NCBI GenBank assembly: GCA_022827725.1 | Contig: JAJEIJ010000019.1 | Location: forward strand, 20,382 to 84,381 | Reading direction: 5' to 3' | Origin: Acidimicrobiia bacterium | GTDB taxonomy: Bacteria > Actinomycetota > Acidimicrobiia > Acidimicrobiales > Bin134 | DNA: 64,000 nt | Shown here: piece after piece, positions 1,999 to 11,700 of the stretch | How positions within the stretch are numbered: position 1 is the stretch's first letter | Layout: each line of letters opens with the position of its first letter | The notes under the pieces: model-generated | Seen by the model: only the letters and a program-made list of their open reading frames with translations | Databases searched by the model: none | Told to the model about the DNA's origin: nothing | Program-made: the position numbers and the translations under genes

Positions 1999-3711
1999 AT
2001 GCAAGCGCTCCAAGGTCTCCTAACGGGACGAATCGCACGGTCAGGGGTGGAGTTGCTCGCCTCGTTCCGACCGCGTCGGGCCTTTCCCGCCGTGATGGTG
2101 CTCTCCATCGTCACCGGGGCTCTCGTCGGGTTGTTGGTAGCTGGCTTTGAACAGCTCACCGTTGAAGTGCTGCTCAAGAGGCTTTTAGAGGGCCCGCTTT
2201 GGTGGCAGGCGGCGGCTCCAGCCGTTGGCTTGTTTGCCGCCGTCGCAATCTTGCGCTATCTCGGGCGGGGCACCTCTCCTTCGACCTCCGACGAGTACGT
2301 GCGGGCATTCCACGAACGCCACCCCCGACTCCCCCTCTCCCAGCTTCCCGCAAAGCTCCTCGCCGGTGTGGCCACCATCGGCCTGGGCGGCTCGATGGGA
2401 CTGGAGGGCCCCTCGGTGTACGCCGGTGCCACCGTCGGCCACAGCACCCAGCGGCTGTTTTCACGATGGCTGCGCCGGGAGGAAGCCAAGATGCTGCTCA
2501 CCGCGGGAGCGGCTGCTGGCATCGCCGCCGTGTTCAAGACCCCGGCAACCGGGGTGATCTTCGCCCTGGAGGCCCCATATCGCGACGACGTGGCCCGCCG
2601 GGCCCTGTTGCCCGCCCTGCTGGCGTCGGCCTCCGGTTATCTGGTGTACGTGGCCATTCTGGGCACTGATCCGGTTATTGATCTGGGTAGCCACAGCGGC
2701 AATCTCAGCATCATCCATCTGGGCGGGGGGGCGCTGCTTGGTCTCGTAGCCGGCCTCGGGGGACGGGGATTCGCCTGGCTGGTACGCCAGGCCAAAGGAC
2801 TCGAACAGCACTACCCGGTAATTGTCAGGATCCTGGTGGGCGGGGCGGTGCTGGCTGGACTGGTGGTGGCGACCGAGGCAGTGTTCGACCAGCCCCTGAG
2901 CCTGGGTCCTGGGGTGGAGGCCACCCAATGGCTGCAAGACGACGATCACACTCTGCTTCTCATCGGAAGCCTGCTTGCCTTTCGGGTGATCGCCACCCTC
3001 ACCACCGTGGGCGCCGGAGGCACCGGCGGGCTGTTCATTCCCCTGGCCGTTCAGGGGGTGATCGTGGGCAGCTTCGTGGGCCAAGCCTTGGGAACGGCCG
3101 ACATCGGGCTGTACCGCACGCTCGGGCTGGCCGCCTTCTTGGGCGCCGGGTACCGGGCGCCCATCACCGCAGTGATGTTCGTGGCCGAGAGCACCGGCGC
3201 ATCAGTGTTCGTAGTTCCCGCGCTCATAGCCGCCGCAGTGTCCCAGCTGGTGGCCGGATCCAGCTCGGTGGCCTCCTATCAGCTGGACAAGCGGGAGGGC
3301 TTGGTGGAACGCCGGCTCGCCTTGCCCCTCACCTCTGCACTCACCACCGACACACTCACAGTGCCCCCCGATGCCACGGTCAGTGAATTGGTGTACATCC
3401 ATCTTCTTGGTCGACGTGAACGAGAAGTGCCGGTAGTCGACGGTGGAACCTATCTCGGGATGTGCGGCTTGGAGCAGATGAGCGACCTAGAACGTGACGT
3501 GTGGAACGACACGCTGGTTGCCGACATCGCTCGGCGCGATCTTCCCACGGCCCGTCCGTCTTGGACATTGCGCGATGCAGTGGCCCAGATGGACGCCAAC
3601 GACACCGACCAATTGCCGGTGACCGACGACGACGACACCTTCATCGGGGTGGTGCGGGCCGACGACATCCTTCGACTCGACGAGATCCTCGATGAGACGG
3701 AGGGAGTATGA
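1999..3711 (+). CDS. ClC-family voltage-gated chloride channel with C-terminal CBS-like region
   Basis: GSMGLEGPSV (GxEGP selectivity motif), GGTGGLFIPL, many TM helices, and a soluble C-terminal ~150 aa resembling tandem CBS. The true start may lie downstream of 1999. Confidence 0.85.
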   Translation: MQALQGLLTGRIARSGVELLASFRPRRAFPAVMVLSIVTGALVGLLVAGFEQLTVEVLLKRLLEGPLWWQAAAPAVGLFAAVAILRYLGRGTSPSTSDEYVRAFHERHPRLPLSQLPAKLLAGVATIGLGGSMGLEGPSVYAGATVGHSTQRLFSRWLRREEAKMLLTAGAAAGIAAVFKTPATGVIFALEAPYRDDVARRALLPALLASASGYLVYVAILGTDPVIDLGSHSGNLSIIHLGGGALLGLVAGLGGRGFAWLVRQAKGLEQHYPVIVRILVGGAVLAGLVVATEAVFDQPLSLGPGVEATQWLQDDDHTLLLIGSLLAFRVIATLTTVGAGGTGGLFIPLAVQGVIVGSFVGQALGTADIGLYRTLGLAAFLGAGYRAPITAVMFVAESTGASVFVVPALIAAAVSQLVAGSSSVASYQLDKREGLVERRLALPLTSALTTDTLTVPPDATVSELVYIHLLGRREREVPVVDGGTYLGMCGLEQMSDLERDVWNDTLVADIARRDLPTARPSWTLRDAVAQMDANDTDQLPVTDDDDTFIGVVRADDILRLDEILDETEGV

Positions 3712-3724
3712 CCCGGGTTTAGCA

Positions 3725-3788
3725 AGACCGGCTCTGTCAGGAAATAGCTCGTCTTGAGAAGACCGGCTCAGTCGGGAAATAGCTCGTC
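3725..3788. repeat. 29-bp imperfect direct repeat x2 (period 35)
   Basis: agaccggctcTgtcAggaaatagctcgtc (3725-3753) versus agaccggctcAgtcGggaaatagctcgtc (3760-3788). The second copy contains the last codons and stop of the 72-aa ORF. Confidence 0.85.
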
Positions 3789-3986
3789 AACGCTGTCAGC
3801 GCTCGGGGTGTCCCGGTATTCGCACCAGGGCTTCGCCCCTACCTTCACCAGTCGGCATTCCTCACCGGGGATGGCTCCACACTCGACGCATGGATCCTCG
3901 TTCTCTTCAAACATGACGTCGAAGTCGTCGCTTGTGTGCTTCAGCGCACGAGCTTCTTCGTAACGACGGTGGCGTCCCTTTTTCAT
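3768..3986 (-). CDS. small acidic Cys-containing hypothetical protein (72 aa)
   Basis: ORF MKKGRHRRYEEARALK...DPCVECGAIPGEECRLVKVGAKPWCEY with four Cys in a zinc-ribbon-like spacing. No family recognised. Confidence 0.45.
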   Translation of the reverse strand: MKKGRHRRYEEARALKHTSDDFDVMFEENEDPCVECGAIPGEECRLVKVGAKPWCEYRDTPSADSVDELFPD

Positions 3987-4135
3987 GGGCGGCTCCGCAA
4001 TATCAAGCCGGCGGCTCTTTAGCTCCGGCAGCAGGGGGAACGCACCCCCTAACCTCTCATAAGGGCCAGTCTAACCACTCGGTTGCCGTATCTTGCACAC
4101 CGCTAATTCCAAGAATGCCTGGCCGCGACATACGA

Positions 4136-8976: not shown

Positions 8977-9762
8977 TTAGTTCATGCGGGCACGAGCCAG
9001 GGTGGCCAGTCGTTGAAGCTGGTCCTCATCATCGTCCTCGGCAACTTGGGCCAATTGCTCGAACCGTCGGGCGGCCTCGTCGAATCGGCCCCGCTCCATA
9101 TTGATCATGCCGAGTTGTTTCGCCTCACCAGCTGGAACCGACGGACACATCGTCCGCAACTCCAGCACCCACTCCAGGTTGGCGTAGTCCTTGTTCTGGG
9201 CGTAGATCGCTCGAAGGTTCCCCAGCATTCGCTCCATGATCGACGAATGATCCACCGGTGCCAGGTAAGCGGGGTGGAAGCCCTTGTCACCCCCGGTGAT
9301 CTGGTGGAAAAGCTGTTCGCAACCCTGGGCGTCGAGCAGCGCTCCCCCGGCATACACGTCGATGAACACGTCGGTCTCGCTGCGGTCCCGGATCAGGAAG
9401 TGCCCTGGAAGCCCGATGCCGTCAAAGTCATTGCCGGTGAGCTGTCCGATGGCGATTGTGAGCACAGCAAGGCTGATGGGAATGCCGGTGCGCCGATGCA
9501 TGACCTCGTTCAGGAAGGAGTTCCGCGGGTCGTAGTAATCCGCTCGGTTGCCGTGAAATCCCAGTTCGCTGAACAGTGAATGCAGCATTCCGTCTCGACT
9601 GGACCGGTCGCAGCGGTCGACCAGTGCGTGGAGCCGGTCGAGTTCAGCTTGGAAATCCATTCCAGGGCAGCCGTGGGCCGCGATGCACAAAGCACCCTCA
9701 TGGAGCGCGAACTCCTCGCCTAGGAGCAGTTGCCTGAACTTCTCCGCGGGATCCCAAGCCAC
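8977..9762 (-). CDS. SirB1-like transglutaminase-like/TPR protein (UPF0162-type)
   Basis: RRTGIPISLAVLTIAIGQLTG...GLPGHFLIR plus a TPR-like C-terminus. Start trimmed to GTG 9762 to avoid overlapping the divergent gene; uncertain. Confidence 0.55.
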   Translation of the reverse strand: MAWDPAEKFRQLLLGEEFALHEGALCIAAHGCPGMDFQAELDRLHALVDRCDRSSRDGMLHSLFSELGFHGNRADYYDPRNSFLNEVMHRRTGIPISLAVLTIAIGQLTGNDFDGIGLPGHFLIRDRSETDVFIDVYAGGALLDAQGCEQLFHQITGGDKGFHPAYLAPVDHSSIMERMLGNLRAIYAQNKDYANLEWVLELRTMCPSVPAGEAKQLGMINMERGRFDEAARRFEQLAQVAEDDDEDQLQRLATLARARMN

Positions 9763-9799
9763 GAATAGTGAATCTACTCCTACTACTACTCTTTCGCTG

Positions 9800-10555
9800 G
9801 TGAGTGCTTGGCCGTTCTTGGACCATGACGGCCCGATTCCCATCGCCCATAGGGGCGGCGCCGCGGAGGGGCCGGAGAACACCATGGCCGCGTTCGCCGC
9901 CGCCATCGACCTCGGCTACCGATATGTCGAGACCGACGTGCACGCCACCCGCGACGAAGTGCTGGTGGCGTTCCACGACGAGGGGTTGCAGCGGCTCAGC
10001 GGGAGGCCCGAGGCCATCGCCGACTTGAACTGGCGGGATCTGAAAACAGTACGAGTCGGCGGTGGACACGCCATCCCCCGGTTCGAGGAACTCTTGGAAG
10101 CCTGGCCCGACCTCCGGATCGCGGTCGATCCCAAACACGACCAGGCCACTGTGCCGCTGATCGGTGCCCTCCAACGAGCCGACGCCGTCGACCGCGTCTG
10201 CGTCGGCTCGTTTTCCGGCCGCCGACTGGCCCTCGCCCGGCGGTTGGGAGGATCCCGCTTGTGTACCGGACTGAGTCCCAAGGAAGTCGGCCAACTCCAG
10301 GCTGCATCGGCTGGTTTGCCAGTAAAGGTCAAGGCCGGCGCGTGCGCCCAGGTTCCCCCAAGCGCCAAGGGTGTTCCGCTAGTCCACCAGCGATTCGTGG
10401 ACGCTGCCCATGCCCAAGAACTTTCAGTGCATGTGTGGACCATCGACGACGCCGACGAGATGCACCGACTCCTCGACATGGGGGTGGACGGCATCATGAC
10501 CGACCGTCCCACCGTGCTACGCGAGGTTCTTTTGGCGCGCGGGATGTGGTCTTGA
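9800..10555 (+). CDS. glycerophosphodiester phosphodiesterase (GDPD) family
   Basis: PIAHRGGAAEGPENTMAAFAAAIDLGYRYVETDVHATRDEVLVAFHDEGL carries the GDPD catalytic motifs. Start GTG 9800 inferred. Confidence 0.8.
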   Translation: MSAWPFLDHDGPIPIAHRGGAAEGPENTMAAFAAAIDLGYRYVETDVHATRDEVLVAFHDEGLQRLSGRPEAIADLNWRDLKTVRVGGGHAIPRFEELLEAWPDLRIAVDPKHDQATVPLIGALQRADAVDRVCVGSFSGRRLALARRLGGSRLCTGLSPKEVGQLQAASAGLPVKVKAGACAQVPPSAKGVPLVHQRFVDAAHAQELSVHVWTIDDADEMHRLLDMGVDGIMTDRPTVLREVLLARGMWS

Positions 10556-10661
10556 GGGTCGATCCAGGCCCCAAATCGGGCTTGTGCCTGTGGTTAAATC
10601 CAGGTTTCTTGGGGATTTCTACTCACAGCAGTGGAAAACCCTGTGGATTTTGATTTTCCGC

Positions 10662-10689
10662 TTGACCTGGGTTTTTTCCGCGCTATGGT
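10662..10689 (+). promoter_or_regulatory. sigma70-like promoter TTGACC-16 nt-TATGGT
   Basis: TTGACC at 10662-10667 and TATGGT at 10684-10689, in a locally AT-richer patch downstream of the GDPD gene. Confidence 0.5.
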
Positions 10690-10695
10690 ATGCCC

Positions 10696-10970
10696 ACCTA
10701 CCAGAGACAAGCGGGGTGACTCGAGAGAGCAAGCGCCCGAGAGGGCGAGGGTTCGAAAGGGTCCGCAGGGTCACTGGAACGGGCCGAGGAAGTCGGTGGC
10801 ACCACCGAAAGCCGAGGGCCGGGAAGGCGACCAGGTGCCGCGAGGGTCTGGGAGGTAGGGACCGGGGAACCGGAGGGCGCAAGCCAGCCGGGGAACCGAG
10901 ACCGAACGGGACGGCCCCGAGAAGTCGACCGGTTTAGGCCGGGAGGCTACTCGGGGCCTCCTACTTTTCT
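10696..10970 (+). ncRNA. candidate structured RNA (free-standing sRNA or long 5' leader), family not recognised
   Basis: Bounded by the promoter above and an intrinsic terminator. Purine-rich. GNRA-capped hairpins at 10734-10747 (GAGA), 10749-10764 (GAAA), 10862-10873 (GGAA) and 10876-10885 (GCAA). Enclosing helices 10716-22/10768-74 and 10798-803/10834-39. No credible ORF. Confidence 0.45.
10941..10970 (+). terminator. intrinsic terminator
   Basis: GGGAGGC (10941-47) / GCCUCC (10956-61) stem with an 8-nt loop, followed by UACUUUUCU. The U-tract is present on the plus strand only. Confidence 0.6.
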
Positions 10971-11007
10971 CTGACGCTTCGCTAGTTGCTCTTCAGCCGT
11001 CACTAGT

Positions 11008-11700
11008 GTGAGCGCCGTGAGCGGACCCGCAGTCGCATTGCTACACGGACTGGCCGGCTCGGCCCGGAGGACTTGGGGCGACAACGCCTGGATGGACCTC
11101 TTGGCCGATGCCGGTCGGGAAGCAATCGGTGTCGACCTGATGGGCCACGGCACCGCTCCCAAACCCCACCATCCCGAGGGTTATGCCAATTTCGAAGAGC
11201 ATGTGATCGACCACTTCCCCAACGAGCCCATCGACGCCATCGGGTTTTCGTTGGGGGCCTACACCCTGTTGTCCATCGCCTCAAAGACCCCGGAGCGATT
11301 TCACAAGCTGGTTGTATCCGGGGTGGGCAAGAACCTATTCGAACGGGATGAGGACCACAGCCGCATGATCCTTCACGCCGTCACCGGTGAGCCCGACCCC
11401 GAGAACCCCGAAGCACTCCACTTCTCCACCCTGGCCGATGATCCCGAAGCCGACCGGGAGGCACTGGCCGCCCTGTTGGCCAGCCGCACCGCCTTCGACA
11501 CCGATTGCCTCGCCCATGTCGCGGTGCCCACCCTCGTGGTGGTGGGCGATAAGGACTTCGCCTACCCCGCTGACCAGTTGGTGGAAGCCCTGCCCGACGC
11601 CCGCCTCGTGGTCCTTAGGGGCGTCGATCATTTCGCCACCCCCAAATCATTCGACTTCATCGACGCCGCCCTCGACTTCCTCGACGCCCGCCCCTTCTAG
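11008..11700 (+). CDS. alpha/beta hydrolase
   Basis: VALLHGLAGSARRTWG (HG oxyanion region), nucleophile elbow GFSLGA, and C-terminal GVDHF. Confidence 0.8.
   Translation: MSAVSGPAVALLHGLAGSARRTWGDNAWMDLLADAGREAIGVDLMGHGTAPKPHHPEGYANFEEHVIDHFPNEPIDAIGFSLGAYTLLSIASKTPERFHKLVVSGVGKNLFERDEDHSRMILHAVTGEPDPENPEALHFSTLADDPEADREALAALLASRTAFDTDCLAHVAVPTLVVVGDKDFAYPADQLVEALPDARLVVLRGVDHFATPKSFDFIDAALDFLDARPF

Follow-up and report, generated by a model that had tools for sequence, protein, structure and literature searches.

Location and boundaries of a putative RNA gene

We analysed a 64-kb stretch of DNA (contig JAJEIJ010000019.1; hereafter the window) whose best protein matches come from 'Candidatus Poriferisocius' and related metagenome-assembled genomes (MAGs); its source is a sponge-associated member of the Acidimicrobiales. 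The window contains an intergenic gap (10556–11007) bordered on its 5' side by the stop codon of a glycerophosphodiester phosphodiesterase (GDPD) gene at 10555 and on its 3' side by the GTG start codon of an alpha/beta hydrolase gene at 11008. An initial annotation, made by eye, had placed in this gap a structured RNA of unrecognised family, and each of the sequence strings that it quoted was found where it had been located. Judged from sequence comparison, the RNA gene is real and well bounded; its family is not in Rfam 15 and spans Acidimicrobiia from sponge symbionts, marine waters and soil. The features of the locus are listed in Table 1.

The gap carries a sigma-70/sigma-A-type promoter, TTGACC and TATGGT with a 16-nucleotide (nt) spacer, which the initial annotation had already proposed. 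This was the only promoter-like site in a scan of 10300–11300, for which 0.1 sites were expected from shuffled sequences. The pattern TTGAC...TAnnnT was kept in 30 of 31 related genomes, the stored stretch of the thirty-first stopping short of the promoter position, and the promoter was also kept in all groups of metagenomic relatives described below, where the -35 element reads TTGAC or TTGAT. The surrounding patch proved AT-richer, as had been noted, with a GC content of 48% compared with 65% in the window as a whole.

Upstream of the -35 element, four direct repeats were found: TGTGGTTAA (10589–97), TGGGGATTT (10610–18), AGTGGAAAA (10630–38) and TGTGGATTT (10642–50), with start-to-start distances of 21, 20 and 12 nt. 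The exact pattern TGKGGAWWW has four matches in the whole window, two of which lie inside the array. Such an array was present upstream of every family member (43 distinct upstream regions), with repeats starting about 52, 32 and 20 nt before the -35 element in the window's type (group P) and 76, 64, 42 and 21 nt before it in groups A and B. The array is probably a binding array for a regulator. The repeats bear what we take to be a likeness to DnaA boxes (TGTGGATAA or TGTGGACAA) and also, presumably, to the direct repeats bound by PhoP/PhoR-type regulators (CCTGTGAA, GCTGTGA); both likenesses serve as leads only. GDPD genes (glpQ/ugpQ) are classic phosphate-starvation genes.

At the opposite end, a terminator had been proposed at 10941–10970. 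The scan also returned a hairpin at 10941–10962 followed by the T run, but the actual hairpin is longer and reaches back to 10908 (P7, 10908–10962). In groups P, A, B and C, a GC-rich hairpin lies directly 5' of a U tract on the transcribed strand, as in an intrinsic terminator. In the group D member L046, the 3' hairpin (139–202) is capped by GCAA and its lower stem is compensated, and it lacks a U tract on its 3' side; in this group, either termination must proceed in another mode or the RNA must run on. For the window, the start of the RNA is predicted at about 10695–10697, 6–8 nt past the -10 element, and its end within the U tract at 10965–10970.

We next compared the folding of the two strands. 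The plus strand of 10695–10975 had a minimum free energy (MFE) of -145.5 kcal/mol, compared with a mean of -117 kcal/mol for shuffled sequences (z = -6.0), and none of the 200 shuffles was as stable, whereas the reverse complement gave a z-score of -1.3. The purine richness of the plus strand, remarked upon at the outset, was also evident, as the RNA is 64% purine and 41% G, compared with 49% purine for the whole window.

A protein-coding gene or small open reading frame (ORF) was considered and excluded. The mechanical ORFs at 10584–10937 (117 aa) and 10631–10858 had no Pfam match, the variable columns of the aligned relatives fell evenly by phase (36/31/32) and thus lacked the 3-base periodicity of coding sequence, and 1-nt length differences between close relatives disrupt any reading frame. 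These data agree with the initial view that the gap holds no credible ORF. The Shine-Dalgarno-like motif GGAGG occurs three times, compared with about 1.8 copies expected from composition.

The Rfam search suggested by the initial annotation was then carried out. None of the 4227 models of Rfam 15 matched at the gathering threshold in the 64-kb window or in 12 related loci, and the gathering-score and E-value scans together, covering the window and 16 related loci, assigned no family. The scans at E≤10 returned weak, generic hairpin matches on P7, namely F6 (22 bits; threshold 46) and EBv-sisRNA-2 (26 bits; threshold 41.8). RNase P, SRP, tmRNA and 5S RNA, to which short segments (GAGGAAGUCGG, GGGAAGG) had seemed similar, were rejected as none of them scored in Rfam.

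Table 1 Features of the putative RNA gene and its control elements in the window.
Feature	Coordinates	Strand	Description
Repeat array	10589–10650	+	4 direct repeats, consensus CTG(T/G)GGAWWWC; upstream of -35
Promoter	10662–10689	+	Sigma-70/sigma-A type; TTGACC 10662–67, 16-nt spacer, TATGGT 10684–89
Structured RNA	10695–10970	+	About 275 nt; strand-specific fold; 31–32 homologues aligned; conservation stops after U tract
P1, 5' strand	10696–10714	+	ACCU/CCAGA with UCUGG/AGGU 10847–10856; GCGG 10711–14 with CCGC 10838–41
P2	10717–10763	+	Variable inserted hairpin domain (GACUC/GGGUC, GAGC/GUUC, CGCCC-GAGA-GGGCG)
P3	10764–10837	+	Long irregular rod; tip UCGGUG-GCAC-CACCGA 10793–10808; purine-rich internal loops
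P1, 3' strand	10838–10856	+	CCGC...UCUGGGAGGU; adjoining motif GGUAGGGAC recurs in L067 and group A
P4, P5, P6	10862–10898	+	GNRA-capped; CCGG-GGAA-CCGG 10862–73, GGC-GCAA-GCC 10876–85, CGG-GGAA-CCG 10889–98
P7 (3' hairpin)	10908–10962	+	GGGA-GGCCCCGAG-A-AGUC-GA-CCGGU-UUAG-GCCGG-GA-GGCU-A-CUCGGGGCC-UCCU; family-defining
U-rich tract	10963–10970	+	ACUUUUCU; completes intrinsic terminator; groups P, A, B, C; absent in group D (L046)

Predicted secondary structure of the RNA

The structure was derived by mapping the single-sequence MFE fold of the window onto an alignment of 32 sequences; RNAalifold on MAFFT alignments performed poorly in the gappy 5' part. In this model, P1, the closing helix, joins 10696–10705 to 10847–10856. 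The segment GGGAGGUAGG (10850–59) has two possible partners, the 5' end or CCUCCU plus the U tract; the 5' pairing is kept in a lower-GC relative, L067, and the tail differs between groups. P2, which sits after CAAGCG, measures 45 nt in the window, is absent in four relatives, is reduced to a small hairpin in two and is expanded to about 90 nt in one; its outer helix can be formed by both sequence types (GACUC.../GGGUC and UAGCU.../AGUU). In L009/L018, the roughly 90-nt P2 contains tandem GGUCRAGAUCA-like repeats. The pairs of the P3 rod are almost all canonical across the 32 sequences (10771/10830, for example, is UA in 6, UG in 15 and CG in 11), and its largest internal loop is a 4x4 GGAA/GGAA loop (10776–79 and 10822–25). 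Instead of the large tertiary fold that the initial annotation associated with a high density of GNRA loops, the relatives show long rod-like hairpins.

The three small hairpins that follow are kept to different degrees, with 98% pairing for P4, 95% for P5 and 80% for the more variable P6. P4 and P5 had been noticed in the initial annotation, and P6 is one more hairpin of this kind. A 23-nt insertion in L035 falls exactly within the P4 loop, and L029 has a 9-nt duplication of GGGACCGGGGAA ahead of P4.

P7 is the part that defines the family. Across 15 distinct sequences from all groups it comprises 21 pairs, of which 5 show compensatory changes, all in the lower stem. The middle is invariant (CGAG-A-AGUY-GA ... 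GA-GGCU-A-CUCG), and a core of about 34 nt is nearly unchanged family-wide. This conservation of sequence goes well past what a terminator needs, and P7 is probably both the stem of the intrinsic terminator and a recognition or stability module; it appears to be more than a terminator because group D retains the hairpin without the U tract.

The other helices drawn by eye fared differently. CGCCC-GAGA-GGGCG stood well, its inner four pairs being canonical in 25–26 of 26 sequences, and GGGUUC-GAAA-GGGUCC can form but is merely one of two registers within the variable P2 domain. The enclosing helix GUGACUC/GGGUCAC had to be given up, since its strand pairs in P3 in every sequence, even in those without P2, and the two sides are not complementary in the second P2 type. 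GGCACC/GGUGCC was also dropped: it would require an A.C mismatch in the four sequences with C at 10836, while the rival pair 10765/10836 is canonical in 32 of 32 (GU 25, AU 3, GC 4). The motif CCGAG(G)AAGUCG indeed occurs twice (10784–95 and 10917–27). Each copy forms the 5' strand leading to a hairpin (the P3 tip and P7, respectively), and related GAGUCGG motifs occur in groups A, B and D (GACGAGUCGGACC, AGGAGUCGGUGG). The pair of motifs may represent an internal duplication or a repeated binding module.

The strongest support came from L067, whose GDPD is 66% identical to that of the window and whose genome and RNA contain 54% and 56% GC, respectively. The order of elements is the same as in the window (GDPD, repeat array, promoter, RNA, hydrolase), and the RNA folds into the same architecture, again in a strand-specific manner (z = -4.65 for the plus strand and -0.92 for the minus strand). 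A structure-guided, gapless mapping gave 57% identity over the mapped positions. Of 31 window pairs in P1 and P3, 23 were kept (16 identical, 4 changed on one side and 3 compensatory) and 8 were lost. P1 persists with C-G replaced by G-U and A.G replaced by A-U, and the P3 rod is kept with two compensatory pairs. In addition, seven window internal-loop positions become paired in L067, where the GGAA/GGAA loop is replaced by four Watson-Crick or G-U pairs, indicating that P3 is a rod without a bubble.

Conservation in sponge-associated Acidimicrobiia

A search of relatives, which the initial annotation had named as a check, recovered the RNA both in species genomes and in distant metagenome groups. 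When the invariant core GNNGNAGTCGGTGGCACCACNGAAA was scanned against one genome per GTDB species, it was found in 31 species genomes, one copy in each, all from sponge-associated Acidimicrobiia ('Ca. Poriferisocius', Sva0996). Nearly all of these genomes have the promoter and the 3' hairpin with its U tract, and the RNAs range from 227 to 318 nt in length. The same element lies upstream of hydrolase orthologues at 83–95% identity, and this linkage persists while the gene 5' of the RNA changes (GDPD, HNH-DUF222, a giant fn3 protein or a hypothetical gene). At the DNA level, the RNA (83–88% identity), the 105 nt upstream of it (78–83%) and the hydrolase coding sequence (77–85%) are equally conserved. 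Sequence 3' of the U tract is unalignable, and the spacer to the hydrolase start varies from 40 to 200 nt.

This spacer bears tandem duplications in some genomes, such as the two copies of GAGGCGAAACCGGAGYGGGTCGAAACTAGAGTAGGG in L005 (3925–4000) and a repeated unit of about 77 nt in L008 (2830–3000).

A wider family in metagenomes

To look beyond the species genomes, metagenomes of the Joint Genome Institute (JGI) were scanned with the 3' hairpin pattern CGAGAAGTNGAN{10,18}GGAGGNTACTCG; exact-pattern scans of this kind miss diverged copies. The scan returned 24 stretches, comprising 23 true members and one false positive (L063); the single match of the same pattern among viral contigs was a coding-region false positive. 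Three of the members are of the window's type, and the rest are differing G-rich sequences that share the promoter layout and the 3' hairpin. They include marine groups A (about 600 nt) and B (about 348 nt), a soil group C (about 310 nt) and group D (about 567 nt; hairpin without U tract).

All groups have the same promoter design, with 3–4 direct repeats at fixed distances upstream of the -35 and -10 elements, and the promoter-to-terminator layout is kept at about 55 loci. The 5' ends of the RNAs are related (ACCUACCAGAG, ACGCCGAACAC, CCUGCCGAGAG), each closing a 5' rod domain. Between these conserved ends, the family ranges from 227 to 600 nt through gain and loss of hairpin domains. An alignment of seven group A and B sequences contained 197 predicted pairs, of which 11 are compensatory.

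The flanking genes vary among the groups. Groups A and D, like the window, have GDPD on the upstream side, and GT87-like or O-methyltransferase genes occur among the neighbours in groups other than the window's own. The next gene is convergent to the RNA in groups A and B, and the neighbours differ again in group C, in which the nearest named relatives of a neighbour gene belong to Ilumatobacteraceae and Acidimicrobiia. Both marine groups (A and B) contain, between GDPD and the promoter of the RNA, a short ORF of roughly 170 aa that includes hydrophobic stretches and has no match in Pfam (L050, oriented about 3480–3990 on the reverse strand; also L052, L044 and L054).

Genomic neighbourhood of the locus

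In the window, GDPD is preceded by a pyruvate kinase gene (pyk) and a transglutaminase-like gene, and the hydrolase is followed by gltD and gltB on the opposite strand. The mechanical ORFs of the transglutaminase-like gene (8977–9906, minus strand) and GDPD (9683–10555, plus strand) overlap by about 220 nt; GDPD homologues are 223–252 aa long, which points to a later GDPD start, near 9800–9890. Immediately 3' of GDPD, at 10599–10613, the sequence TCCAGGTTTCTTGGG GATTTCT forms a small hairpin plus T run that overlaps the repeat array. This element, which is not kept in L007, may act as the terminator of GDPD.

The pyk-GDPD-RNA-hydrolase-gltDB neighbourhood is an insertion hotspot. An HNH-DUF222 gene is inserted between GDPD and the RNA in L007 (1277–2545); SLFN/AlbA_2, ParA-like and DUF4096 genes lie between the hydrolase and gltD in L005 (4678–7581), and rve fragments with another HNH-DUF222 gene occur in L001 (5082–8270). 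A HEARO/HNH-associated RNA was considered and rejected, as HNH-DUF222 lies upstream in L007 alone and no HEARO match was obtained in Rfam.

Proposed function and alternative explanations

Taken together, these data make it fairly likely that a stable, structured non-coding RNA is encoded by the plus-strand segment 10695–10970 as an independent gene, present in a single copy, and that it belongs to an undescribed, Acidimicrobiia-wide family, with a suggested protein-binding role in trans. The initial annotation had offered a free-standing structured small RNA (sRNA) as one of two readings, and this one is supported by the RNA's own conserved promoter and terminator, its single copy, the lack of an Rfam match in the scanned loci and its occurrence in 31 genomes and distant groups. 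In the mechanism that we propose, a regulator on the repeat array would set when the RNA is made, and the RNA would bind protein in trans, either as a scaffold or to sequester it. P7 would serve as the terminator plus a sequence-specific protein or stability handle, and the variable hairpin domains would be tolerated expansions. Relatives have the GDPD and hydrolase genes next to each other, whereas in the window's own clade the RNA gene separates them; the hydrolase might therefore receive some read-through transcription as a side effect.

Several observations weigh against this interpretation. The ends of the RNA and the transcript itself are predictions made from DNA sequence. In 13 diverse sequences, 92.5% of the cells were paired, compared with 32–50% when the partners were slid, a figure that is partly circular because the structure was derived from one of the sequences. 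Variation among the 32 sequences is mostly one-sided (G-C to G-U) or stepwise, and covariation within the close clade is weak, with only four pairs changing on both sides, a number matched by 40 of 500 shuffles. The homology of the RNA middle between groups is suggested by manual and MAFFT alignment together with the shared ends. Furthermore, L001, L066 and L069 lack the RNA at the syntenic site, a statement that applies to those loci only. A search for named or cultured carriers by way of the neighbouring GDPD and O-methyltransferase genes led to uncultured Acidimicrobiales alone, and L069 (an Ilumatobacteraceae MAG) and L068 had no RNA at the loci examined.

The other reading offered at the outset was a cis-acting 5' leader or riboswitch, which would sense a ligand or signal and use the 3' hairpin to gate transcription into the hydrolase at 11008. 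The hydrolase is indeed co-oriented downstream in all group P genomes and in L067, the U tract is imperfect (ACUUUUCU), and in RNA-less relatives the hydrolase follows the preceding gene at 12–42 nt, which suggests that it has no promoter of its own and, in this clade, may depend on read-through. These same RNA-less orthologues (57–68% identity), however, do without the RNA altogether; groups A and B have a convergent gene after the RNA, and the neighbours in group C are different again. In addition, the spacer to the start codon is unconserved, the most conserved part of the RNA is the terminator hairpin including its internal loops, for which no conserved alternative (anti-terminator) pairing was found, and the Rfam scans of the window matched no riboswitch family. 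We therefore set this reading aside as very improbable. A base-pairing sRNA, whose conserved single-stranded segments (for example AGAGACAAG, 10703–10711) would pair with target mRNAs, would fit an own promoter and terminator and action in trans, and a few unpaired purine-rich segments are in fact conserved. However, an RNA of 230–600 nt that is nearly all folded and that gains or loses whole hairpin domains is unlike seed-based sRNAs; its class-wide invariant element is a paired hairpin rather than a single-stranded seed, and the unpaired segment at the 5' end changes from one group to another. This makes a base-pairing mode quite improbable.

An orphan large RNA that does not sequester protein but is, for example, a ribozyme, a ribosome-associated RNA or an indispensable component of a ribonucleoprotein would share with RNase P, SRP and other large RNAs the combination of conserved ends and modular expansions. 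Its many GNRA loops, the G.A-rich internal loops, the invariant P7 helix sequences that suggest sequence-specific recognition and the lack of a match to known families all fit this explanation. We nevertheless think it unlikely, considering that no conserved pseudoknot or multi-helix junction core was found, that the P3 internal loop turns into plain pairs in L067, which argues against a precise tertiary core there, and that some relatives do not have the gene at the syntenic position. Finally, the conserved stretch could be a DNA element, a regulator-binding or replication-related site that merely resembles an RNA. A function at the DNA level could account for part of the conservation, and the upstream array does resemble DnaA boxes or response-regulator direct repeats. 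Strand-specific folding in two genomes that differ in GC content, the presence of G-U pairs and compensatory changes, and a promoter-to-terminator layout at about 55 loci with conservation ending exactly at the U tract render this explanation extremely improbable.

Returning to the trans-acting RNA, the leading candidate for its partner is RNA polymerase, because actinobacterial lineages use unrelated long RNAs (Ms1 and CoRP) for this enzyme; the RNA would then do in Acidimicrobiia what Ms1 does in most Actinomycetia and CoRP in Corynebacterium, an analogy that we regard as rather unlikely to hold. Against this partner stand the lack of a large central bubble, with the 4x4 loop being paired in L067, the lack of similarity to Ms1 or CoRP and a synteny unlike that of Ms1. 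A 6S-like way of binding is disfavoured by the missing bubble. If the RNA does bind RNA polymerase, Actinobacteria would have solved the same problem in three unrelated ways; if not, the RNA would mark an unknown ribonucleoprotein.

On a larger scale, we tentatively suggest, as possible rather than probable, that this is the founding case of a class-wide family, unrelated to any described RNA, of modular RNAs of 230–600 nt, in which P7 docks a conserved protein and which have a housekeeping regulatory role distinct from those of 6S, Ms1 and CoRP. In such a family, the array of DnaA-box-like or PhoP-like repeats would govern transcription, and the RNA might, for example, couple gene expression to replication or phosphate status. 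The class Acidimicrobiia, abundant in the ocean, in soil, in wastewater and in sponges, is almost uncultured, and we know of no description of a global regulatory RNA from it, be it 6S, Ms1 or another. Being single-copy and strongly conserved, with a promoter design shared across the class and a 34-nt core that is nearly invariant, this RNA makes a good candidate for a global regulator, and the hairpin core offers a simple handle for locating the gene in any assembly. The family also illustrates how a structured RNA can grow and shrink between 230 and 600 nt by whole hairpin domains while retaining its ends.

Comparison with known RNAs

Ms1 (MTS2823/Ms1 of Mycobacterium; scr3559 of Streptomyces) binds the RNA polymerase core (PMC4191392, PMC9130861). 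Like the RNA described here, it comes from a free-standing actinobacterial gene, present in one copy and equipped with a sigma-A-type promoter and an intrinsic terminator, and is about 300 nt long, with a predicted long irregular hairpin, short end hairpins and a sequence poorly conserved between orders (PMC4191392, PMC9130861). However, Ms1 has been reported only in orders of Actinomycetia, not in Acidimicrobiia, and it is flanked by HAD-IB hydrolase/phosphoserine phosphatase and oxidoreductase genes (PMC9130861), whereas GDPD, alpha/beta hydrolase, pyk and gltDB genes are found here; the large central bubble is also missing from the Acidimicrobiia RNA. An nhmmer search with the group P profile and blastn at word size 7 against S. 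coelicolor Ms1 gave only chance matches of 8–19 nt, and membership of the Ms1 family was ruled out by the mismatch in synteny and sequence.

CoRP of Corynebacterium glutamicum, a 516-nt RNA that is not homologous to Ms1, binds both the RNA polymerase core and the holoenzyme (PMC11077062). It resembles the present RNA in being long, purine-rich, structured and lineage-restricted, in a group without a recognisable 6S or Ms1, and it documents the lineage-specific replacement of RNA polymerase-binding RNAs in Actinobacteria (PMC11077062). In contrast to our RNA, CoRP has tRNA genes on both sides and is processed by cleavage into two pieces, and it shares neither motifs nor the 3' hairpin; a CoRP homologue was rejected, as neither nhmmer nor blastn found similarity.

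The proposal of RNA polymerase as partner draws its functional analogy from 6S RNA (RF00013), which is structured, abundant and trans-acting and whose ends are paired. 6S had no Rfam match in the window and related loci even at E≤10. 6S RNAs are 150–210 nt long (PMC4191392), compared with 227–600 nt for the Acidimicrobiia family. Their central bubble of about 15 nt per side is absent here, where the largest loop of the conserved rod is 4x4, and their closing stem joins the 5' and 3' ends, whereas the 5' end of the Acidimicrobiia RNA pairs with 10847–56, about 110 nt before the 3' end.

With riboswitches and attenuators, the RNA of the window shares a structured RNA and terminator upstream of a co-oriented gene. 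It differs from them in having no fixed downstream gene family-wide and a convergent next gene in two groups, and no conserved alternative pairing was found. The raiA motif, OLE, ROOL and GOLLD RNAs are also comparable, being large, highly folded RNAs of class- or phylum-level distribution that form their own transcription units, were found by comparative genomics and have functions that are little known. None of their Rfam models matches the present RNA, which is, as far as seen, confined to Acidimicrobiia and carries a signature of its own, a repeat-array promoter combined with an invariant 3' hairpin.

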